64,000 bases of DNA, from contig CP066687.1 in NCBI GenBank assembly GCA_016432405.1, positions 150,281-214,280 on the forward strand, given 5' to 3'. Below are positions 4,099-61,180 of the stretch, in pieces. A program made the translations under genes and the position numbers. Position 1 is the stretch's first letter, and every line of letters begins with the position of its first letter. The notes under the pieces are model-generated. The model saw only the letters and a program-made list of their open reading frames with translations. It searched no databases and was not told where the DNA came from. The stretch is from Candidatus Giovannonibacteria bacterium. GTDB taxonomy: Bacteria > Patescibacteriota > Minisyncoccia > UBA11713 > 2-01-FULL-45-33.

Positions 4099-5157
4099 AT
4101 GAAAATCCCGATGCCGAATTTTTTAAAGCTCCCCATCTACGCTTTTGAGCTTTCGGACAGGTCGTACAAATATCTGCGGCTTGGCGAAGTGCGCGGAGGG
4201 ACGGTTGTGAACGATTTTGGCGAAGGGGAAATTGCCGCGGGGGTGATTGAACACGGAGAAATCAAAAAAAGGGACGTGCTTGCGCCTCTCTTGAAAGAAC
4301 TTTTTTTAAAAAAGGACATAAGGTTCGTGGCCGTTTCTTTGCCGGAAGAAAAAGGATTTCTGGAAAATGTCCAGTTGGCCGGAGTAAAAGAAGAAGAGAT
4401 CAGGCAAGCGCTTGAGCTGCAGTTGGAGGAGCATATCCCCCTGCCTCCGGGCGACGTCTTATTTGATCACGAGCTTGCCCGCAAAGACAAAAATCATTTT
4501 GATGTGGTCATAAACGCTTTCCCCAGGACGCTCGTGGAAAGTTATCTTGATACTTTTTATTCAGCAGGCGCGCTGCCAACTTTTACGGAGTCGGAGCTTG
4601 CGGCCTCGGCGAGAGCGCTCATTCCGCAAAATTTCAGAGGCACCGCGATGGTTATAGACTGGGGTAAAACCCGCACCAGCTTCTATATAGTTGAGGACGG
4701 GCGCCTTCGCTTTGCCTCCACTATCAACATAGGCGGAGAGTCGCTTGATGCGGCCATCGCGAAAACCTTGGGCGTCAGCCAAAAAGAGGCGGAGAATTTA
4801 AAAATCAAAAATGGGTTGCTGCAGAATCAGGATTCCCTTCAGGTTTTCCAAGCCATCATCCCGACCGTGACGGCGCTTCGGGAAGAAGCGGAGAAATACA
4901 TAAACTTTTGGCAAACACATTCCGAAAACAAAAAATTCCCGGAGAAAATTTTCCTCTCCGGCGGCGACGCCAATATGAAGGGGCTTGCGGAACATTTTGC
5001 GGAAGAACTCGGTGCGGAAACCGCCGTGGCGAATCCATGGGTCAATGTTAAATTTCCAAAATATTATCTGCCGGATATCACCAGGCAGCATGCGGTGCGT
5101 TTTTCGGCGTCAATCGGCCTTTCATTGGCGGCTAAAGAAAGAGAAGAAACGATATAA
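4099..5157 (+). CDS. pilM: Type IV pilus assembly protein PilM (actin-like ATPase fold)
   Basis: Start chosen at in-frame ATG 4099 (MKIPMPNFLKLPIYAFELSDRSYKYLRLGEV…); PilM-like length and motifs. Confidence 0.82.
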   Translation: MKIPMPNFLKLPIYAFELSDRSYKYLRLGEVRGGTVVNDFGEGEIAAGVIEHGEIKKRDVLAPLLKELFLKKDIRFVAVSLPEEKGFLENVQLAGVKEEEIRQALELQLEEHIPLPPGDVLFDHELARKDKNHFDVVINAFPRTLVESYLDTFYSAGALPTFTESELAASARALIPQNFRGTAMVIDWGKTRTSFYIVEDGRLRFASTINIGGESLDAAIAKTLGVSQKEAENLKIKNGLLQNQDSLQVFQAIIPTVTALREEAEKYINFWQTHSENKKFPEKIFLSGGDANMKGLAEHFAEELGAETAVANPWVNVKFPKYYLPDITRQHAVRFSASIGLSLAAKEREETI

Positions 5158-6668: not shown

Positions 6669-6856
6669 CTGTGAGTTGATGCGCCTTCAACGAGGCGCCA
6701 TTGTTATCTTTTCAGCCCGGAGTATCTAATTCCGAGCCGCCTTCCTGCCTCCATCCTCGGTCGCCTTTTTGGGCGTGGGCTGGCGGTTTTTGAGCCGTCT
6801 GGTAGCGGCTCGTTACCATACAGGTACGCCAGTGCGACCTTACCCGAACGTGCCCA

Positions 6857-7193: not shown

Positions 7194-7778
7194 ATGTATT
7201 TGGAAGCCGAAAGGCCGTTAAATGAAATTCCCGACGAGGTGATTTTAAGAAAATCGCTTGCGAACCCGTCGCTTTTTTCCGTTTTGATTGATAAATACCA
7301 GATTCCTTTTGTAAGGAAAGCGCAGGGAATTGTGCATTCCAAAGACGAAGCGGAGGATATTGTCCAGGAGACCTTCACGAAAATTTATCTAAACGCCAGA
7401 AAATTCAAAAAACAGCCCGGGGTGGAGTTCAAAAGCTGGGCCTGGCGGATTTTGGTGAACACCTCGCTTACCCATTACCGCAAGCTCAAAAAGACCTTCG
7501 GCGACGTTGGGTATTTGGACGAAATTTTATCCGGAGACGAAGAGGCCGAGGCGCTTTTCGCGGTGGAAGACACTCTGGACAGGGACGAAAATATCGCCGG
7601 GGTCAGGGACGCCATTGAAAAAATGCCTCCCGAGGCGGCCGAGCTGCTACGGGCGCATTATGTGCAGGACCGCCCCTACGCCGAAATAGCCAGAAAACAC
7701 GGCATTTCCATAGGGGCATTAAAGATGAAACTTTTTCGCGCCCGCAAGGTTTTAAAGGATGTAATCAAGGAAGTATAA
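7194..7778 (+). CDS. RNA polymerase sigma-70 family, ECF-type sigma factor
   Basis: Region 2 (…EDIVQETFTKIYLNARKF…WAWRILVNT) and region 4 HTH (YAEIARKHGISIGALKMKLFRARKVLK). Confidence 0.85.
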   Translation: MYLEAERPLNEIPDEVILRKSLANPSLFSVLIDKYQIPFVRKAQGIVHSKDEAEDIVQETFTKIYLNARKFKKQPGVEFKSWAWRILVNTSLTHYRKLKKTFGDVGYLDEILSGDEEAEALFAVEDTLDRDENIAGVRDAIEKMPPEAAELLRAHYVQDRPYAEIARKHGISIGALKMKLFRARKVLKDVIKEV

Positions 7779-10491: not shown

Positions 10492-11908
10492 ACCGCCAAT
10501 TGTAGTCGTGATGGGGCACATTGACCATGGCAAGACAGCGCTTTTGGATTATATAAGAAAGACCAATGTTGTGGCCGTGGAATCCGGAGGCATTACCCAG
10601 CACATAGGCGCTTATGAAGTTGAACACGCCGGCAAAAAACTGACTTTTCTGGATACGCCGGGGCACGAGGCGTTTTCCAAAATGCGCTCGCGTGGGGCAG
10701 TGGTCGCTGACATCGCCATATTGGTTGTGGCGGCGGACGACGGGGTTAAGCCGCAAACGGAGGAGGCGCTGGCCACGATAAAAAGCGCCGGCATTCCTTT
10801 TTTGGCCGCCATAAATAAAATTGACAAGCCAGCGGCGGACCCGGAGCGGGTGAAAAACGAGCTTGCCAAAGAAGAAGTGTTTTTGGAAGGGCGCGGCGGA
10901 AATGTGCCCTTCGTTGAAATTTCGGCAAAGCAGGGCACGGGAGTGGACAAGCTCTTGGAGACCATTTTACTAATGGCCGAGATGGAAAACCTCCCGGCCG
11001 ACACCAAAGCGTTCGCGGGCGGAGTGGTTATTGAATCGCACCGCGACCCGAAGCGCGGCGTGACATCCACTTTGCTCATAAGAGGCGGCACTTTGAAAAA
11101 GGGGGAGTATGTCGCCGCCGGAGGGGCGGTCGCCAAGGCGAGGATTTTGGAGGATTTCAAAGGAGACCCGATAGATTTCGCTGGCCCGTCTTCCCCGGTT
11201 TTGGTTGTCGGCTTTGACAAGCCGCCGCAGGTGGGCGCAGAGTTTAAGGCGTTTTTTTCACAAAAGGAAGCAATTGACGCCGCCCGCACCGCCGGAGAAA
11301 AACCCGCGCCCGGTTTCTTCCCGCCGGGAGGTTTTATAGGTCTTGTCATCAAAGCCGATGTTTCGGGCTCGGCGGAGGCGATTGAACACGAAGCGGCAAA
11401 GCTGAAAGATATAAAAATATTGCGCTCGGAAGCCGGCGAGGTGTCCGAAGACGACATCAAGCTTGCTTCCACCGCCGCGAATTCTTTGATTCTGGCTTTC
11501 AAGGTCGGGCTTTCATCAACCCTTCGCGAGCTTGCTTTGCGGCTGGGCGTGGAGGTGGCGCAGTTTGAAATCATATATGAGCTGGCGGATTTTCTTAAGA
11601 AAAAAACAGAAGCGCTCCTACCCAAAGAAGAAATAAATAAAATCCTAGGGCATGCAAGGGTGCTTAAGATTTTCAAGGCGGACGGAAAAACCCAGATAAT
11701 AGGCGGTAAAGTTCAGGACGGCCTAATTCGCCGCGGAGCGGAATTCAGCGTTTTTCGCCGCGAGAAAAAAATAGGCGAAGGGAAAATCGAAAATCTACAG
11801 GAAGGGCGAGTAAACGCCTCCGAGGTTGAAGCCGGAAAAGAATTCGGGGCGCTTGCGAGCTCAAAGATATCAATAGCCGAGGGAGACATATTGGAAATTT
11901 TAGGATGA
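10481..11908 (+). CDS. infB: Translation initiation factor IF-2 (short form lacking N-terminal extension)
   Basis: G domain GHIDHGKT, DTPGHEAF, NKID; 475 aa; followed by rbfA. Confidence 0.9.
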   Translation: MQNRPPIVVVMGHIDHGKTALLDYIRKTNVVAVESGGITQHIGAYEVEHAGKKLTFLDTPGHEAFSKMRSRGAVVADIAILVVAADDGVKPQTEEALATIKSAGIPFLAAINKIDKPAADPERVKNELAKEEVFLEGRGGNVPFVEISAKQGTGVDKLLETILLMAEMENLPADTKAFAGGVVIESHRDPKRGVTSTLLIRGGTLKKGEYVAAGGAVAKARILEDFKGDPIDFAGPSSPVLVVGFDKPPQVGAEFKAFFSQKEAIDAARTAGEKPAPGFFPPGGFIGLVIKADVSGSAEAIEHEAAKLKDIKILRSEAGEVSEDDIKLASTAANSLILAFKVGLSSTLRELALRLGVEVAQFEIIYELADFLKKKTEALLPKEEINKILGHARVLKIFKADGKTQIIGGKVQDGLIRRGAEFSVFRREKKIGEGKIENLQEGRVNASEVEAGKEFGALASSKISIAEGDILEILG

Positions 11909-13209: not shown

Positions 13210-13566
13210 TTAAATCTGTGGCCGAACGTCGCCCGGACCGCCGGGGATTACCCCGCCTCCGACTCCGAATTGCGCGACAATCGCCCTGACCACTCCCCAG
13301 ATGGCTATCATGACGAAAAGTCCGACAAGCCCGAAGATGATAAATCTGCGGCCATCGGCCAATTTTTCCTCATCCCCGCCGGCGGTAACGTATCTGATAA
13401 CGCCCCAAAGAAAAACAATGGTGGCGACTATCATAAGAATCGGGATGACCCGGTTCAAAACGGATTCAAGCTGTGCCAAGATAGAAGTCACGTTCGCCGC
13501 GTAAGCGAAGAGCGGCAAAGCAAAAGCGGAACTTACTGCGATTTGCGTTAGAGTTTTTTTATTCAT
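13210..13566 (-). CDS. VirB2/T4SS-pilin-like two-TM membrane protein with signal peptide (paralog 3)
   Basis: Signal-like N-terminus; IPILMIVATIVFLWGVIRYVTAGGDEEKLADGRRFIIFGLVGLFVMIAIWGVV. Confidence 0.55.
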   Translation of the reverse strand: MNKKTLTQIAVSSAFALPLFAYAANVTSILAQLESVLNRVIPILMIVATIVFLWGVIRYVTAGGDEEKLADGRRFIIFGLVGLFVMIAIWGVVRAIVAQFGVGGGVIPGGPGDVRPQI

Positions 13567-13632
13567 AGTTTTATTTTAATTTATTTTTTAACTTTTAATG
13601 CTTATTGACTTTTTTTTCGACCTTTTTTAATT

Positions 13633-14016
13633 TTAAAGTTTCTTGGCGAAATCCACTATGGCGCTGGCGATGGCGTAAGCGCCCACCAAAAGCGCCGTTC
13701 CGACAATTGTCCAGTAAAAGGTTGATTTGGCTTTTTTGAGCTGTTCGTCGTTGCCCCTTGCCGATACGAAGAGAAACCCAGACCAGACAAGAAACACGGT
13801 TGCTAAGGGAATACCTATTTTAACCATAAGGTCAGCGAACCCCTTGACCACTGCGCCGAAAGACCCAGCGTTAATCGGGTTTTTAAGCTCATAAAACGGC
13901 TCAACGGCCCTCGCCCGGACTCCTAAATTCACCATAGCATAAACAAGGCCGAAAAGGAAGAACTTAGCGCGGTTTAGCATAGGTTTATTATACATATTTT
14001 TAAGGGAAAACCACAT
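13633..14016 (-). CDS. VirB2/T4SS-pilin-like two-TM membrane protein with signal peptide (paralog 4)
   Basis: IPLATVFLVWSGFLFVSARGNDEQLKKAKSTFYWTIVGTALLVGAYAIASAI. Confidence 0.5.
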   Translation of the reverse strand: MWFSLKNMYNKPMLNRAKFFLFGLVYAMVNLGVRARAVEPFYELKNPINAGSFGAVVKGFADLMVKIGIPLATVFLVWSGFLFVSARGNDEQLKKAKSTFYWTIVGTALLVGAYAIASAIVDFAKKL

Positions 14017-24288: not shown

Positions 24289-24791
24289 GGCATAACGCCG
24301 GCAGAATTGCCGCCCGGCATTTCGCCGAAAAACAGGATTATCCCGAATTTACGTACGATAAAAAATCTAACTCCCTTGTTTCCAAAAAAGGGCGGACAGC
24401 GGTTGCTTTGCCGGAGACATTTATGAATAAATCGGGAAGCGCGGCGGTGAAATTAATCCGGCCAAAAAAGGAGCTAAAAGAACTGGTTGTGATTCACGAC
24501 GACTTGGATTTGCCGCTGGGGCGGTTTAAAATTTCTTACGGCAAAAGTTCCGGCGGGCACAAGGGGGTGGAATCAATCATGCGCGCGCTTAAAACGAAAA
24601 ACTTCGTCCGTATCCGCATTGGCATTTCGCCAAAAAGAAAGCCGGCGCAAAAGGAAGTGATGAAATTCATAGTCGGAAAGTTCAAACCGGCGGAGTCGGA
24701 AATTTTTAAGAAAATAAACAAGCGCGTATCGGACGCGCTCGAGGTTATGGTGAACGGCTCGTTAGAAAGCGCTATGAGCCAATTTAACTAG
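24234..24791 (+). CDS. pth: Peptidyl-tRNA hydrolase
   Basis: LGLGNPGAEYENTRHNAG N-terminal signature. Confidence 0.9.
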   Translation: MIRLILGLGNPGAEYENTRHNAGRIAARHFAEKQDYPEFTYDKKSNSLVSKKGRTAVALPETFMNKSGSAAVKLIRPKKELKELVVIHDDLDLPLGRFKISYGKSSGGHKGVESIMRALKTKNFVRIRIGISPKRKPAQKEVMKFIVGKFKPAESEIFKKINKRVSDALEVMVNGSLESAMSQFN

Positions 24792-25030
24792 TTAACTGCG
24801 AACTCTATTTTGGCGGAATCATGCTGGCTTACTATCAGGATGAAAGTTTTCCTCGCCAGGTTTCTCCCGCGGATTTCCGTGTGATTTCTGTTGTGCTTAA
24901 CGGTCGGCCTCTTTGCCGAAATAAAAAATTCTCTCTGCCCGTTCTTCCTTAATAAGACGGTTTTATACATATTCCGCTCCTTTCCGTTATCGTCTACGAA
25001 ATTCATAGCAATATATTGCAAATTAGTCAA
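24788..25030 (-). CDS. Hypothetical small protein divergent from PaaX-like regulator
   Basis: 80-aa ORF only; no recognisable domain. Confidence 0.3.
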   Translation of the reverse strand: MTNLQYIAMNFVDDNGKERNMYKTVLLRKNGQREFFISAKRPTVKHNRNHTEIRGRNLARKTFILIVSQHDSAKIEFAVN

Positions 25031-25051
25031 TTTCCGGCTATTATTTCTAAT

Positions 25052-25085
25052 TTAACAAACTTGACCGATCGGCATAGTTTGTTAA
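25052..25085. promoter_or_regulatory. 34-nt inverted-repeat element TTAACAAAC-TTGACCGATCGG-N4-GTTTGTTAA (copy 1), overlapping a TTGACC-N17-AATAAT promoter
   Basis: In divergent intergenic region 11 nt upstream of PaaX-like gene; near-identical copies at 25650 and 60398. Confidence 0.55.
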
Positions 25086-25095
25086 TAATACTATT

Positions 25096-25647
25096 ATGGC
25101 ATTTAAAAAAACGAGCGCAAATAAAAAACCCACTTTAACTTTCCTGATTTTAAAAACAATTTTTGATTTGGGTGCCATTACTGTAAACTCATTTTTCCCT
25201 GCAAAATACCCGCAAGCACGAATCTGGAGACAGCTTTTAGGCTTGGATAAATCTTACAAATTTTCCCGTCAATCATTCGCGGTCATTTTAAGCAGGCTTC
25301 AGAAACAAAAATTGATAGCGTGCCAAAATGGCAAGTGGAGCATTACCAGCTTAGGCAAGAAAATAATTGGAGAATCAAAATTTAGACAGAATTCCGAATT
25401 GCCTCCGGAAGATGGCAAGGCGCGGTTATTCATTTTTGATATTCCGGAACGAGAGCGCAAAAAGCGTTTATGGCTTCGCCTTGAGCTTATTTCTTGCGGT
25501 TACAAGCTTTTGCAAAAAAGCGTTTGGGTTGGCTACCGGCCGTTGCCGGAATATTTTTTGAGGGACTTGGAGGATTTTAATCTAAGATCTCATATTCATA
25601 TTTTCAGCATTCATCACAGCGGCACTCTCCAAAAGGAGAATTCTTAA
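25096..25647 (+). CDS. PaaX-like winged-helix transcriptional regulator (short form)
   Basis: N-terminal wHTH; central segment DGKARLFIFDIPERERKKRLWLRLELISCGYKLLQKSVWVG matches PaaX/Cas2-like fold segment. Confidence 0.5.
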   Translation: MAFKKTSANKKPTLTFLILKTIFDLGAITVNSFFPAKYPQARIWRQLLGLDKSYKFSRQSFAVILSRLQKQKLIACQNGKWSITSLGKKIIGESKFRQNSELPPEDGKARLFIFDIPERERKKRLWLRLELISCGYKLLQKSVWVGYRPLPEYFLRDLEDFNLRSHIHIFSIHHSGTLQKENS

Positions 25648-25649
25648 AC

Positions 25650-25683
25650 TTAACAAACTTGACCGATCGGTAAGGTTTGTTAA
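25650..25683. repeat. 34-nt inverted-repeat element, copy 2 (TTAACAAACTTGACCGATCGGTAAGGTTTGTTAA)
   Basis: Starts 3 nt after PaaX-like stop codon. Confidence 0.55.
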
Positions 25684-25782
25684 GTCGTGACACAAATAAA
25701 AAAGCGCAGGGTTATTCAACCAATGCGCTATCGCAAAACTCGAGACGTCGGCTTATGCTCGGGTATGCGTATGGCACTCTCT

Positions 25783-26040
25783 TTATTTAAAGAAAGATAA
25801 AATAATGCCCATAATCATAATCACCAATGATGTCAGTATCCATTTGTTGTTAATTTTCACCGCCAACCTTACATTGGGATCCCGCATGTTAAATCCTTTT
25901 ATTTCGTCATGATGAGGTGGGCGGAAAAGACTGAAAATAAGTATCCCGGCTAATCCCGCAAGGGCTAAAATAAGTCCAAAGTAGTGCATAAATCCTCCTT
26001 TTCTGCCAACAATCTTAGCAAAATTGTATTCCTTTGTCAA
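25783..26040 (-). CDS. Small membrane protein (hypothetical)
   Basis: Two hydrophobic helices; 85-aa ORF. Confidence 0.3.
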   Translation of the reverse strand: MTKEYNFAKIVGRKGGFMHYFGLILALAGLAGILIFSLFRPPHHDEIKGFNMRDPNVRLAVKINNKWILTSLVIMIMGIILSFFK

Positions 26041-28046
26041 TACATGCTAATATTCAACAACTGAAAGATAAGCTAGATAAATTGTTAATAGCAGCGGTTG
26101 CCCCCTCTCTTTTGGAAAAGGGGGTGGGTTGGTTTTCGGAAAATTTTTCTAAAATTGAAAAGTTCAGGCGCGAAAATCCGTTTTGGCGGAGGAATGTTTT
26201 GATTTTTGAAACAGGACAAAATATAAAACTTTCCGAATTTTTAAGAAGCGTCGCCGAGCTGGGGTACACGAAAGTTTGGGAAACAGAGCGCCGCGGAGAA
26301 TTTTCCCAGCGGGGAGGAGTTGTCCATATTTTTCCGATAAACTCGGAAAATATTTTCGCGGTTGAGTTTGGTGGGAATTTTTTGGCAGAAATTTGGCAAA
26401 GCGAGCCATTTTCGGAGCGCGAGGGCGTCGGAGCCCCCCGAGTCCGCGAGGGAGGGTTAAGACCGAGCGAAACGGAAATGGCGAGCCTTTTTCACCAAGG
26501 CGACTATATCGTGCATATTGACCACGGCATCGGTGTATACCGCGGACTTACGCAGACCACAACGCAGAATGACGCGGATATTGTGATAGAATACGCTCCG
26601 CCGCGGGACCGCCCAAACTCGCCCGACTTGCTTTTTGTGCCAAAAAAAGAAGCCAAAAGAATCCAGCCGTATCTCGGCTTTAAAAAGCCGGAGATTCACC
26701 GCTTGGGGACTCCCTTGTGGGCGCTTACAAAAAAGAAGGCAAAAGAAGACATCATCGCTTACGCCAAAGAACTTCTTAAGATTTTTGCTGAACGAAAAAT
26801 GGCGGCGCGGAAACCCTACGAGGCAAATAAAGAATTGGAAGACGAGCTCATCGCGGATTTTCCATACGAACATACCTCCGGCCAAAAAGGGGCGCTGGAA
26901 GAAATTTTTTCCAATATGACGCACCAGGGGCCGATGGACAGGGTGCTGACTGGAGACGTCGGCTTCGGGAAAACGGAAATCGCGCTCACGGCGGCTTTCC
27001 GCGCGGTCTTGAACGGCCGGCAGGTTGCGATTATGGCGCCGACCACTATTTTGGCTGACCAGCATTCGGAAGTTTTTAAAAAACGTCTGGAAAAATATGG
27101 GGTTGAAACCGCGCGGCTTACCCGGCTTGAAAGTCCGGCGGAAATCAGGAAAATTTTGGAAGGAATCAAATCAGGCAGAATAGACATTGTGATTGGGACT
27201 CATAAAATTTTGTCGGCCTCGGGCTGGAAAAATCTGGGGCTTTTGGTGATAGACGAGGAGCAAAAATTCGGCGTGGCCCAAAAAGAAAAGTTCAAAAAAC
27301 AAAATCCGGCGCTGGACATCCTGACTCTCTCGGCGACTCCTATCCCGAGAACTTTGCACATCGCGCTTTCCGGAATTAAGCAAATTTCGTCAATTGAAAC
27401 GCCGCCGGAAGGGCGGATGGAGATAAAAACTTACGTTTTGCCGAAAAACAAGAAAATAATGAAAGAGGCGATTAATTTTGAGCTTGCCAGAGGAGGCCAG
27501 ATTTATTTTCTTGCCAACCGCATCCACAAAATTCCGGCGCTTTTGGAAGAGATTAAATATTTGAAAACCAGTGCCAAAATCAGCGTGCTTCACGGAAGGA
27601 TGCCGGAGGCAAGAATTATAAAAACCATGCGCGATTTTCGCGCCGGGAAAATAGATATTTTGGTTTCCACCACGATTATTGAAAACGGGCTGGACCTTTC
27701 CAACGTAAATACTTTGATTGTTGAAGATTCCACGAAGCTCGGCCTTTCGCAGGCGCATCAGCTCCGCGGCCGCATAGGCCGCGGAGAAAAAGAAGCGTTC
27801 GCGTATTTTCTTTTCACGGCGCAAAAATTAAAAGAAAAAGCCGCGGAGCGGCTTGAGGCATTGGAAAGATATTCCTGGCTCGGCGCCGGTTTGGAGATTG
27901 CTAAAAGGGACTTGGAAATCAGGGGAGCTGGAAATATTTTGGGCCGTGCGCAGTCCGGCGTCGCCTTCCGCGTCGGATTGAATCTTTATTTTGAACTTTT
28001 GGAGGAGGCGATTTCGGAAGCCCGCGGGTTTGACAAAAAAACCTAG
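26034..28046 (+). CDS. mfd: Transcription-repair coupling factor Mfd (short form lacking UvrB-homology N-terminal domains)
   Basis: SF2 helicase motifs GDVGFGKTE, DEEQ-like, C-terminal …LEIRGAGNILGRAQSG TRCF-type motif. Confidence 0.75.
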   Translation: MSIHANIQQLKDKLDKLLIAAVAPSLLEKGVGWFSENFSKIEKFRRENPFWRRNVLIFETGQNIKLSEFLRSVAELGYTKVWETERRGEFSQRGGVVHIFPINSENIFAVEFGGNFLAEIWQSEPFSEREGVGAPRVREGGLRPSETEMASLFHQGDYIVHIDHGIGVYRGLTQTTTQNDADIVIEYAPPRDRPNSPDLLFVPKKEAKRIQPYLGFKKPEIHRLGTPLWALTKKKAKEDIIAYAKELLKIFAERKMAARKPYEANKELEDELIADFPYEHTSGQKGALEEIFSNMTHQGPMDRVLTGDVGFGKTEIALTAAFRAVLNGRQVAIMAPTTILADQHSEVFKKRLEKYGVETARLTRLESPAEIRKILEGIKSGRIDIVIGTHKILSASGWKNLGLLVIDEEQKFGVAQKEKFKKQNPALDILTLSATPIPRTLHIALSGIKQISSIETPPEGRMEIKTYVLPKNKKIMKEAINFELARGGQIYFLANRIHKIPALLEEIKYLKTSAKISVLHGRMPEARIIKTMRDFRAGKIDILVSTTIIENGLDLSNVNTLIVEDSTKLGLSQAHQLRGRIGRGEKEAFAYFLFTAQKLKEKAAERLEALERYSWLGAGLEIAKRDLEIRGAGNILGRAQSGVAFRVGLNLYFELLEEAISEARGFDKKT

Positions 28047-30832: not shown

Positions 30833-33041
<2,209 letters not shown>

Positions 33042-33062
33042 AACTTGCAAAGTTTTTAATTT
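33042..33062 (+). terminator. Short terminator-like palindrome after ligA
   Basis: AAACTTGCAAAGTTT then TTAATTT. Confidence 0.4.
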
Positions 33063-33199
33063 AGTGCTAGGCCTTTTTATTTTTTCTTGCACTATACACT
33101 TTTGTACGATCGTGAGGTTTTGTATAGTCTGCTTTTAGGGTAGGTAGTTGGTTTTAGCCCTTCTCTTGGGGCTTTTTTTTATGCATTTTTTCAGCTACA

Positions 33200-33505
33200 A
33201 TGGCCTTAATGATTTCCGAAGAAGAAATTGAGCATCTGAAGGATTTGGCGCGGGTTGAATTCGGCAAGACGGAAACAAAAAAACTCGCGAAAGACCTGGG
33301 AGAAATTTTGGGGTACGTTGACCGGCTTAAAAAGGCGGACGTTTCAAGCGCTCTGGAGATGACGCACGCGCTGGAGGGAGTAAAAAATGTTTTTCGCAAA
33401 GACGAAAAAGGCAAAGATGAGGGAGGTCTAGTCCTTACTAAGGATTTAATAAACGCCTTCCCAGAAAAAGAAAATAATTATCTTAAAGTCCAAGCGATTT
33501 TATGA
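33200..33505 (+). CDS. gatC: Glu-tRNA(Gln) amidotransferase subunit C
   Basis: ~100 aa, MALMISEEEIEHLKDLARVEF… typical GatC; precedes gatA with overlap. Confidence 0.85.
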   Translation: MALMISEEEIEHLKDLARVEFGKTETKKLAKDLGEILGYVDRLKKADVSSALEMTHALEGVKNVFRKDEKGKDEGGLVLTKDLINAFPEKENNYLKVQAIL

Positions 33506-43999: not shown

Positions 44000-44040
44000 A
44001 TTTGTTAAAATTTCTTCAGAGATTCCCGATCGGAGGATAT

Positions 44041-53671: not shown

Positions 53672-54723
53672 GGGTTTTCATGATAAGCGGGGATCCGGGG
53701 GTTTTAGAACCGCAATCGGAGACCGGAAAAAGAACGGAAGAATATCGCAAAGCCCTCGGCAAGCTGGATGTTTTGGTTTGCCGCGGAAGTATTTTTAGTT
53801 TTATTTTCGGGTTTTTGGGAGGACTTAAAATACTTTGGCGCAATAAGTACGATGTGATTACGGCGCAAGATGTGGAGCACACGCTTCTGGCATGGGTATT
53901 TTCAAAATTTTTCAAAACCCCGTTTCAAATGCAAATACACGCCGATATTATGAGCCCGTATTTTCGGCGGGAATCGCTTAAAAATAAAATCCGCGTCGCG
54001 CTCGCAAAATTTTTAGTCCCGCGCGCGGATTGCGCGCGGGTGGTTTCGGAGAGAATTAAAAATTCAATTTTAAGGACGTCGGACGTCCGTTCGGACGTCC
54101 GACGTCCAATAATTGTTCTCTCAATTTTCGTTGACACAGAAAAAATCAAAAACTCGCCAATCAAAACCGATTTGCACAAAAAATATCCCGGGCGGTTTAT
54201 AATTTTGATGGCGTCGCGGATAACAAAAGAAAAAAATATCGGATTGGCGATTGAGGCAGTGAAGGGGCTAATAACCCACCCCTTAAACCCTCTACTTCTC
54301 ATTGTTGGAGACGGGCCGGAGATTGAAAATTTAAAATTTAAAACTTACAAGCTGGGGCTGAATGAAAATATCGTTTTTGAGCCGCATACTGACGATTTAA
54401 TCTCTTACTATAAAACCTGCGATTTATTTTTACTGACCTCAAATTACGAAGGATATGGGCGCACTCTGGTTGAGGCCGCTGCCGCGTCAAACGCGGTTGG
54501 CACAGCGGGGGCGAAAATTATATCAAGCGACGTCGGCATCGCGCCGGAAATTTTGGAGCCGGAATGTATTTTCAAAGTCGGCGACAAAAATAATTTAATT
54601 GAAAAATTAAATTCAGTTTTCTTGGGTAACATCAAGACACCGAAACTACTTGTTTCTCAAACAAAAGAGGATTATTTAGGGTTATATAAAAGCAGTTTTG
54701 AGGTATGCGCTCATAAAAAATGA
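53668..54723 (+). CDS. GT4-family glycosyltransferase
   Basis: …TSNYEGYGRTLVEAAAASNAV… Glycos_transf_1 signature. Confidence 0.7.
   Translation: MRVFMISGDPGVLEPQSETGKRTEEYRKALGKLDVLVCRGSIFSFIFGFLGGLKILWRNKYDVITAQDVEHTLLAWVFSKFFKTPFQMQIHADIMSPYFRRESLKNKIRVALAKFLVPRADCARVVSERIKNSILRTSDVRSDVRRPIIVLSIFVDTEKIKNSPIKTDLHKKYPGRFIILMASRITKEKNIGLAIEAVKGLITHPLNPLLLIVGDGPEIENLKFKTYKLGLNENIVFEPHTDDLISYYKTCDLFLLTSNYEGYGRTLVEAAAASNAVGTAGAKIISSDVGIAPEILEPECIFKVGDKNNLIEKLNSVFLGNIKTPKLLVSQTKEDYLGLYKSSFEVCAHKK
54074..54107. repeat. 34-nt perfect GC-rich palindrome (GGACGTCGGACGTCCG-TT-CGGACGTCCGACGTCC) inside GT4 CDS
   Basis: 16-bp perfect arms, built from GACGTC units; encodes RTSDVRSDVRRP in frame. Confidence 0.7.
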
Positions 54724-59896: not shown

Positions 59897-60361
59897 TTGA
59901 AATACGATGTCGTTGTGCCGTTTGCTTTCGGGTTGCCGTCGGAGTTGGGGTCTAACGAAGAAATTCTTAAAAGAGCAGCTCTACTTGGCAAGGAGTCGGG
60001 TCTACCGGTTTTTGCCGAATGTGTATTTTCGACAAAGTATCCAGAAGTGCAGTTAGCTCAATCGGATGGCTGTTATTCCTCCACACTGAAATTGGTCAAA
60101 GCTTTAGCCGACAGAGCCAAGAAAAGGGGCTGGAGAAACGTTTTGGTGGTTGCTCAGCCGCACCATGCCAAGCGATGCATTAGGGATCTCGGAAGATTTG
60201 GTTTTAACGCCGAAGCAGATTGCCATTTTTGCGTTAATGGAATGTATCTGTATGACAAAAAATCCCTGCAGTGGCAAACGCGCTCGGCATGGCAATTTTG
60301 GCTGCGCGAGGCGCCGCTTCGTCTTTTGCCTTGGTGGCTCTATTCCCGAATAGCCGGTTGA
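59897..60361 (+). CDS. Hypothetical protein (154 aa)
   Basis: ORF only. Confidence 0.3.
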   Translation: MKYDVVVPFAFGLPSELGSNEEILKRAALLGKESGLPVFAECVFSTKYPEVQLAQSDGCYSSTLKLVKALADRAKKRGWRNVLVVAQPHHAKRCIRDLGRFGFNAEADCHFCVNGMYLYDKKSLQWQTRSAWQFWLREAPLRLLPWWLYSRIAG

Positions 60362-60397
60362 GTTTGCACACTCTCCGGCTTTTATTTTCTTTTAAAT

Positions 60398-60431
60398 TTA
60401 ACAAACTTGACCGATCGGATGAACTTGTTAA
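60398..60431. repeat. 34-nt inverted-repeat element, copy 3 (TTAACAAACTTGACCGATCGGATGAACTTGTTAA)
   Basis: Between convergent gene ends in glycosylation locus; 29/34 identical to copies at 25052 and 25650. Confidence 0.55.
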
Positions 60432-60442
60432 ATTTTTCTTTT

Positions 60443-61180
60443 TTATCTCTTTTTAAATTTCAGCGCAAATACGACGCGCAAGGAATCAAAGATGTCGCGG
60501 AGGGTGCTTTTTGAAGAGCCGCCGCGGCGCTCTAAAAATTGAATCGGAATTTCTTTTGTTTTGGCGCCCCGGCGCAGCATTTCGTAGAGAAACTGGATTT
60601 TGTAGGCGTAATATTTTGATAAAACTTTGTTTTCATCAAGCGGCAGCAACTCCGCGAAATTTTTTACGCGGGAAAGTTTAAGGCCGGAGGTCGTATCGTT
60701 TACCGGAAGCCCTAAAACAAACTTGGCGGTGAAACCGCCAAGTCGGCTTAAAAATTTTCTCCAAAGCGCCCACTCTTTTGGAATGGAGCCGCCTGGGACG
60801 TAACGCGAGCCGATGATATAGTCATATCCTTTATCAAATTCGGCAACCAGCCGTTTTATGTCTTCTGGATTATGCTGCCAGTCGCCGTCAAATTCTACCA
60901 CAGCGTCAGCACCCAATTTTTCTATCGCGTATTTCATTCCTGCGACATATGCCGCGCCGATGCCGCGCTTTTCTTTTTCTTTGATTAAAAAAATGTTCTG
61001 GTGGCGTCGGGAAGCTGCGGCGACGGCTTCGGCCGTGCCATCCGGTGAGTTCCCGTCCACAACCAAAACTTTCATCTCATGATTTTGAATTGCTTTGAAT
61101 ACTTTTCCGCAAAGCGCTTCCAGAATCCCGCCGACGGATTCTTTCTCATTGTAAGTTGGAATTATTACGACTATTTTCAT
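60443..61180 (-). CDS. Polyprenyl-phosphate sugar synthase (dolichyl-phosphate mannosyltransferase-like GT2)
   Basis: …IVVIIPTYNE…VVDGNSPDGT…; 245 aa; 4-nt overlap with upstream GT-C gene. Confidence 0.8.
   Translation of the reverse strand: MKIVVIIPTYNEKESVGGILEALCGKVFKAIQNHEMKVLVVDGNSPDGTAEAVAAASRRHQNIFLIKEKEKRGIGAAYVAGMKYAIEKLGADAVVEFDGDWQHNPEDIKRLVAEFDKGYDYIIGSRYVPGGSIPKEWALWRKFLSRLGGFTAKFVLGLPVNDTTSGLKLSRVKNFAELLPLDENKVLSKYYAYKIQFLYEMLRRGAKTKEIPIQFLERRGGSSKSTLRDIFDSLRVVFALKFKKR

Follow-up and report, generated by a model that had tools for sequence, protein, structure and literature searches.

Why does a short gene for a PaaX-like regulator lie between two copies of one palindrome, and does the palindrome belong to the protein that is encoded between them? 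The question arises from a 64-kb stretch of DNA (hereafter, the window) of a Candidatus Giovannonibacteria metagenome-assembled genome, which belongs to the Candidate Phyla Radiation (CPR). I compared the locus with its relatives and with metagenome sequences, and weighed the explanations that a gene between two palindromes calls to mind.

The palindrome and the mini-PaaX gene in the window

The mini-PaaX gene (25096..25647, plus strand) encodes a protein of 183 aa with a winged helix and a Cas2-like PaaX_M domain. Copy 1 of the 34-bp palindrome precedes it at 25052..25085, and copy 2, in direct orientation relative to copy 1, begins 2 nt past its stop codon, at 25650..25683. Copy 3 (60398..60431) is a solo copy with a degenerate right arm, located between the convergent genes 59897-60361 (plus strand) and 60443-61180 (minus strand); the latter is a gene for a GT2 polyprenol-phosphate mannose synthase. 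These three copies had been reported in a preliminary description of the locus and were recovered here, all on the plus strand, including the placement of copies 2 and 3 between convergent genes. With up to three mismatches allowed, the element had no match in 100 shuffles, and the chance expectation is 0. No further copies were found within the 64-kb window, which thus has one solo copy. The occurrences of CCGATCGG at 44026 and 46060 were rejected as copies, both being devoid of arms.

Copy 1 reads TTAACAAAC TTGA CCGATCGG CATA GTTTGTTAA, and the pattern of the three copies is TTAACAAAC-N4-CCGATCGG-N4-GTTTGTTAA, in which the first spacer is TTGA and the left 21 nt (TTAACAAACTTGACCGATCGG) are the same in 3/3 copies. 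The 9-bp inverted arms described earlier around a palindromic core are present, but the symmetry is not limited to the arms: the 34-mer as a whole is a near-palindrome with its centre between CCGA and TCGG, self-complementary at 14/17 positions in copy 1, 15/17 in copy 2, and 12/17 in copy 3. Copies 1 and 2 are identical at 31/34 positions; the value of 29/34, once given for this flanking pair, is that of copies 1 and 3. The spacer length need not vary between N4 and N5 either, as copy 3 keeps the same 34-nt geometry with a right arm (ACTTGTTAA) in which 7/9 arm positions are complementary. CCGATCGG is over-represented in the window (5 observed, 1.2 expected) because of the elements. The tetranucleotide GATC is approximately 3-fold depleted in the window (63 observed, 209 expected), but every copy retains it at its centre. 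In the whole window, TCGA is also strongly under-represented (28 observed versus 297 expected), and the scarcity of GATC and TCGA suggests restriction avoidance.

What kind of element is this? A CRISPR array would have at least three regularly spaced repeats with short spacers, whereas here a gene stands between two repeats spaced by 598 bp, with the third at a distance of 35 kb. Rfam covariance models gave no match up to E = 1 in 24700-26100. The RNAs of the copies are predicted to fold with -8 to -18 kcal/mol (z-scores of -2.3 to -5.4). Might the copies then be autonomous hairpins, serving as RNA or DNA elements that stabilise the 3′ ends of mRNAs or act as weak bidirectional terminators, with the upstream copy alone tied to the protein? 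The folding energies would agree with this, as would the solo copies directly past stop codons. Moreover, in several lineages (for example, L055 and L081) the palindrome is perfect and combines a GC stem with a T-tract, as in a textbook bidirectional terminator. However, the inner 4+4 nt are unpaired in the window-type elements, the T-tract is missing in copies 1 and 2, copy 3 has a T-rich tail with a weak stem of -8 kcal/mol, and a terminator scan called 0/3 window copies as intrinsic terminators. Copy 2 lies between the mini-PaaX gene and the terminator of a convergent small membrane-protein gene (25783-25989, minus strand), and copy 3 lies directly 3′ of the intrinsic terminator (60345-60385) of the plus-strand gene 59897-60361. 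Copies 2 and 3 thus each adjoin the intrinsic terminator of a convergent neighbour, while the gene whose stop codon abuts the copy has no terminator of its own. Since canonical terminators already stand beside copies 2 and 3, a second terminator would be superfluous. The hairpin explanation also leaves unexplained the same sequence in the upstream copy, which is probably untranscribed, and I regard it as quite improbable.

The assignment of the protein to the PaaX family, proposed earlier, was borne out: PF20803 (PaaX_M) matches residues 105-179 with E 5.6e-14 and 52.4 bits against a cut-off of 24 in Pfam, while the Pfam model of the PaaX N-terminal domain has no match in the 183-aa protein. 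In an AlphaFold model (pLDDT 76), residues 14-93 form a winged helix composed of helices and a beta-hairpin wing, and residues 109-180 form a ferredoxin-like domain. The best fold match in the PDB is PaaX of E. coli W (8a39, E 8e-5), followed by winged-helix regulators of the MarR/PhiH1 type for the N-terminal half and the Cas2 structures 5zyf and 5xvo for the C-terminal half. Cas2 sequence profiles match the protein below threshold. The protein ends right after the Cas2-like domain and lacks the C-terminal ligand domain of PaaX. Across the family, the Cas2-like half of the protein is conserved, and the winged-helix half is variable. Both D115, which is the Cas2-type Asp at the end of strand 1, and E118 are invariant, and these residues at the Cas2 catalytic position may have a catalytic role. 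The family is large, with 1,820 clusters at 50% identity (E <= 1e-10), and the listed members are mostly 170-210 aa in length.

The neighbours of the gene are hisS, a signal peptidase gene, pth, a gene for a small membrane protein, and a short mfd-like gene. No paa genes were found nearby, nor was a Cas1 gene or a CRISPR array seen near the gene. There is one mini-PaaX copy and no second PaaX-like gene within the window. The mfd-like gene (26034-28046) encodes 670 aa and scores 696 bits with TIGR00580 against a cut-off of 800; compared with full-length Mfd, its product is apparently devoid of the N- and C-terminal parts.

Copy 1 had been said to contain TTGACC-N17-AATAAT, and it does. The sigma-70-like promoter (25061..25089, plus strand) consists of TTGACC at 25061-25066, a 17-nt spacer, and AATAAT at 25084-25089, with 10/12 matches. 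Its -35 lies within copy 1, its -10 overlaps the end of the right arm, and the ATG follows 6 nt past the -10. The mini-PaaX mRNA is probably leaderless or nearly so; the Shine-Dalgarno statistic is uninformative on this call, as the start-codon calls are crude. Copy 1 would be an operator that overlaps the promoter and covers approximately -44 to -11. Is this layout found in relatives? Within the window's subfamily, 10 distinct relatives have a gap of 9-11 nt between the upstream element and the ATG, while the arm bases differ. In the relatives with the embedded promoter layout (L008, L009, L010, L015, L016, L053, L061, L083, and L093), a -10-like hexamer of differing bases stands at the arm edge. 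The recurrence of palindrome, -35, -10, and 9-11 nt gap in 10 relatives lends comparative support to the autoregulatory operator that had been proposed at copy 1. The divergent promoter proposed with it is doubtful, as no family matches the minus-strand ORF 24788-25030, which is also missing in L009, L093, and L061; in these close relatives, approximately 30-35 nt separate the end of pth from the element. In L017, L060, and L081, which belong to another subfamily, the element lies 58-85 nt upstream of the gene. Thus, the gap of approximately 10 nt is specific to the window's subfamily.

Two-sided bracketing in the mini-PaaX family

Is the bracket peculiar to the window? Relatives were found by protein alone at 84, 77, 67, 62, 58, 48, 40, and approximately 31% identity, and the surrounding DNA was compared. 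With the window, this set comprises nine homologues (the window, L008, L009, L010, L014, L015, L016, L137, and L138), which, being found by protein alone, carry no bias toward the DNA motif. Another 13 homologues were found via the DNA pattern, in a metagenome scan with AACAA-N6-CCGATCGG-N6-TTGTT that gave at least 120 loci, with approximately 10 estimated chance matches. In these 13, the second flank also has an element, often too diverged to match the scan pattern. In summary, a palindrome is present on both sides of the gene in 22/22 distinct homologues examined, the window included, down to approximately 30% identity. Two-sided bracketing is apparently a family-wide rule, which is the main result of this study and was missed by the preliminary description. 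The downstream element lies within 4 nt of the stop codon in 11/22 homologues and overlaps it in L010 and L030; in the window's subfamily, it usually starts 2-4 nt past the stop codon. The downstream element has the direct orientation relative to the upstream one wherever the spacers make orientation readable. Helical phasing of the two flanking sites was considered and rejected, as the spacings of 596-840 bp are inconsistent.

The reverse comparison, from the DNA to the protein, gave the same association. Among the ORFs within 1.2 kb of 131 sites, the mini-PaaX family was the only strongly recurrent neighbour (18 of at least 120 loci), while the next-commonest neighbour clusters reached 4-5 loci each. 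A 19-mer scan of 185,579 species-representative genomes, among which the source genome is not included, gave one match, in a Vibrio contig, which was taken as chance. In the literature on PaaX, its operators, Cas2, and CPR palindromes, I found no description of a gene-between-palindromes layout.

A tight bracket might also be the trace of transposition. The palindrome-gene-palindrome unit would then be a mobile cassette that duplicates its target, similar to the relocatable cassette proposed earlier. With 10 nt between repeat and ATG and 2 nt between stop codon and repeat, the bracket is indeed tight, its repeats are direct, and the more distant homologues have other neighbour genes. Nevertheless, the pth-gene-mfd order is kept over the range of 100% to 62% protein identity, the window has a single copy, no recombinase is adjacent, and a protein-profile scan of viral contigs revealed no relatives of mini-PaaX. 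The promoter lies inside the upstream repeat in all lineages of the subfamily, which points to an old, fixed arrangement. Mobility of this gene as a cassette is thus not supported, and I consider it very unlikely. No weight was given to the association with mfd itself, because it is limited to the window's sublineage and follows the common pth-mfd synteny.

Given the bracket in 22/22 homologues, a binding site of the encoded protein is the likeliest identity of the palindrome, ahead of a chance repeat or an abundant genome-wide one. I hold with moderate confidence that the palindrome is the cognate DNA site of mini-PaaX and that the upstream copy is an autoregulatory operator overlapping the promoter. 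The Cas2-like domain would dimerise and place two winged helices on the outer arms, approximately 25 bp apart centre to centre, with the conserved dimer core over the invariant CGATCG centre. At the upstream copy (approximately -44 to -11, with the predicted transcription start at or beside the ATG), the bound protein would exclude RNA polymerase and thereby repress its own gene. The protein would also bind the downstream and solo copies, where transcription units end. There, a 3′ copy may anchor a repression loop with the upstream site, or it may form a protein roadblock between convergent genes; a loop anchor or roadblock is the role that I prefer for the downstream and solo copies.

If the palindrome is read by the protein, do the two vary together? 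The arms vary with the protein lineage, and the most distant relative has a different core, too. The arm class TTAACAAAC is shared by the window, L008, L009, L061, and L093. The other classes are CTAACAAAC (L016 and L029), ATAACAAA (L017, L048, L060, and L081), TAAACAAT (L010 and L083), TAATTC...GAGTTA (L014), and ATATACAT-N7-CGATCG-N7-ATGTATAT (L138), while L137, the most distant relative, has CTATAC arms and a CGGCCG core. The consensus of the element is AACAA-N7-CGATCG-N7-TTGTT, and an alignment of 34 AACAA-type sites shows no change in AAC-A, CGATCG, or T-GTT. Changes at the outermost and inner positions are symmetric: 69 cells are altered on both sides versus 29 +/- 5 in shuffles, and the covariation score is 0.31 versus 0.12 in shuffles, the observed values being reached in 0/500 shuffles. 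Such symmetric change is compatible with a dimeric reader or with a hairpin, and symmetry kept through two-sided changes would suit autonomous hairpins too. However, a pure hairpin does not require that AACA and CGATCG be invariant in sequence. The invariant letters indicate sequence-specific reading, which is more than pairing alone. The conserved Cas2-like half and the variable winged helix of the protein seem to parallel the constant centre and the variable arms of the DNA. As a separate observation, a PaaX-like gene of L083, itself bracketed by AACAA-type elements, is followed 135 nt downstream by a third palindrome (CTAAGATATTTCGGCGATCGTCGAAAAATCTTAG, approximately 4341-4374) with other arms, from which it seems that several classes of specificity exist side by side in one genome.

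Solo copies and junctions of varying gene content

In the pattern-only sample, approximately 40 distinct solo sites and approximately 20 gene-linked sites were counted among the at least 120 metagenome loci (approximately 2:1). Most solo copies directly follow a stop codon or stand between convergent genes (approximately 10 convergent versus 1 divergent among the low-GC solo sites), often beside intrinsic terminators. Their neighbours (such as BipA/RmuC, LepA/S16, SmpB, MeaB, GT2, and an MBL-fold protein) are unrelated housekeeping genes, among which a functional theme was sought and not found. No hidden PaaX-like gene, including a divergent one, was detected next to the solo sites at E <= 10, except for gene fragments at contig ends. 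In 41 kb of the relatives L139 and L141, there are no AACAA-type copies. The low number of solo copies and their 3′ placement do not fit a classical regulon, nor do they fit an abundant REP element. The suggestion that the unit is a dispersed REP-like element thus holds for its placement at 3′ ends and between convergent genes, but, in the 64 kb and the metagenome sample, not for its number.

REPtrons deserve a closer comparison. In these, a single-copy RAYT gene is flanked by a short palindrome, solo copies lie in extragenic 3′ regions, and the palindrome sequence tracks the protein lineage. The mini-PaaX gene resembles them in being flanked by a palindrome with solo copies at 3′ ends and a sequence that tracks lineage. 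By analogy, the Cas2-fold protein would be a site-specific nuclease or recombination factor that copies, homogenises, or recombines its own palindrome, and the solo copies would be its products, or boundaries of cassettes, in permissive 3′ intergenic DNA. The lack of a functional theme around the extragenic solo copies would agree with this, as would the lineage-specific spacers that solo and gene-linked copies have in common in the window and in L017, and the invariance of D115 and E118 at the Cas2 catalytic position.

The turnover at individual junctions is also in its favour. Downstream of the GT2 gene, where the window has copy 3 at 60398, the arm class differs from genome to genome. L142 (GT2 80% identical) has GGGCTACA-N8-CGATCG-N8-TGTAGCCC, and L141 (GT2 75% identical) has TTAGCATACA-N11-CGATCG-N11-TGTATGTTAA at approximately 10750-10800. 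At this junction in L139 (GT2 80% identical), there is no element, and the adjacent small gene is also missing. A palindrome of a second class, ACTATACA-N8-CGATCG-N8-TGTATAGT, lies in the window at 33089-33126 between ligA (31014-33041) and gatC (33200-33505) and is followed by a terminator. Its geometry is the same as that of the bracket of the distant homologue in L138. As the window has no second PaaX-like gene, a cognate paralogue of this palindrome, if any, would lie elsewhere in the genome. The syntenic region of L067 (1695-3173, compared with 33056-33445 of the window; flanks of 80-86% protein identity) has 2.3 kb more DNA with extra genes. Three extra genes are each followed by a CGATCG palindrome, two of them with an adjacent terminator as a 64-nt direct repeat, in contrast to the single palindrome at 33095 in the window. 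CGATCG-cored palindromes of more than one arm class apparently mark 3′ junctions of varying gene content. Near-identical copies of a perfect 34-bp palindrome, CGAACAATAATGTCCGATCGGACATTATTGTTCG, occur in at least 14 unrelated contexts on contigs of 48-64% GC (including L020-L023, L032, L034, L038, L041, L051, L058, L073, L085, L092, L109, L110, and L132), which also counts in favour of the REPtron-like reading. In orthologous pairs of this palindrome, the symmetry is kept through changes on both sides (L092 versus L110).

Nonetheless, several features differ from REP/RAYT systems. The protein is not an HUH/Y1 transposase: PaaX_M is its sole Pfam match, and no HUH motif is found among the invariant residues. 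Its flanking copies are direct, while those of REPtrons are inverted, and the upstream copy would also serve as the promoter of the gene. The element occurs approximately once per 50-60 kb, compared with once per 5-10 kb for REP; the single solo copy in 64 kb and the 41 kb of L139 and L141 free of the AACAA type illustrate this low number. The gene sits stably between pth and mfd down to 62% identity, and viral copies were not found. In L142, palindrome and terminator recur at 6730-6839 and 7467-7576 within a 110-nt segmental duplication among paralogous small genes, so that the second copy did not arise by insertion. A pair of empty and filled sites with the element as the sole difference was not found. 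On balance, a REP/RAYT-like or cassette-boundary system, although the main rival of the cognate-site reading, appears fairly unlikely.

Comparison with known regulators and palindrome systems

How does the proposed cognate site compare with that of PaaX itself, the repressor of phenylacetate catabolism known from E. coli and Pseudomonas? The operator of E. coli PaaX is TGATTC-N27-GAATCA, with widely spaced inverted half-sites, through which PaaX represses its own Px promoter by steric hindrance of RNA polymerase; its C-terminal domain binds the inducer phenylacetyl-CoA (PMC9493321). Mini-PaaX resembles PaaX in the winged helix, the Cas2-like central domain (PF20803), the fold match to 8a39, and the widely spaced inverted half-sites of its proposed operator. 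It differs in its 183-aa length without the C-terminal domain, in the lack of nearby paa genes, and in its uncultivated CPR host. Its proposed half-sites are approximately 25 bp apart versus 33 bp for PaaX, and its putative site has an invariant CGATCG centre and is repeated directly past the stop codon. In phage lambda, the CI repressor gene lies between OR and OL, and looping between them tunes autoregulation. The mini-PaaX gene likewise lies between two putative operator regions, but each flank has one site instead of three, the sites abut the coding sequence, and there are extra solo sites in the chromosome. The likeness to Cas2 consists in the ferredoxin-like residues 109-180, which match 5zyf and 5xvo, and in the conserved Asp at the end of strand 1; the differences are that the Cas2 match is below the family cut-off, that the domain is fused to a winged helix, and that the repeats flank a gene instead of spacers.

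Several points count against the cognate-site reading. The invariant centre is not obviously explained by a winged-helix dimer, solo copies at 3′ ends beside unrelated genes are the opposite of classical operators, and the invariance of D115 and E118 may point to catalysis. I found no precedent for a repressor site directly 3′ of the repressor's own stop codon. Alternatively, the mini-PaaX proteins of CPR bacteria might, instead of being plain repressors, form the protein half of a so far unrecognised palindrome system, in which they recognise and possibly nick a CGATCG palindrome as a marker of transcription-unit ends and of the limits of variable gene insertions. This I hold to be unlikely; if true, the system would correspond in function to REP/RAYT or integron attC sites while relying on another protein fold. 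The invariant AAC...GTT of the element resembles the core triplets of integron attC, while the element is far shorter than any attC known to me.

With the palindrome as the probable cognate site of mini-PaaX, a large uncharacterised family (approximately 1,800 clusters) now has a DNA site and a promoter, both predicted, together with a bracket rule that can be tested, in bacteria of the CPR that have almost no characterised regulators. Since the arms and the protein change together, the family is a natural data set for a recognition code of winged helices. From the invariant centre, it seems that duplex DNA can be read by a dimer of the Cas2 fold, a point of relevance to the origin of the DNA-holding role of Cas2 in CRISPR adaptation. 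Should the 3′ copies be roadblocks or recombination sites, they would be a new way to delimit transcription units or gene insertions in very small genomes.

Two further observations concern related sequences. In L085, a related half-element lies just before the likely start of a distant PaaX-like ORF (13211-13736). The window itself has another 34-bp palindrome, GGACGTCGGACGTCCGTTCGGACGTCCGACGTCC, at 54074-54107, which is complementary at 16/17 positions and unrelated in sequence to the element.
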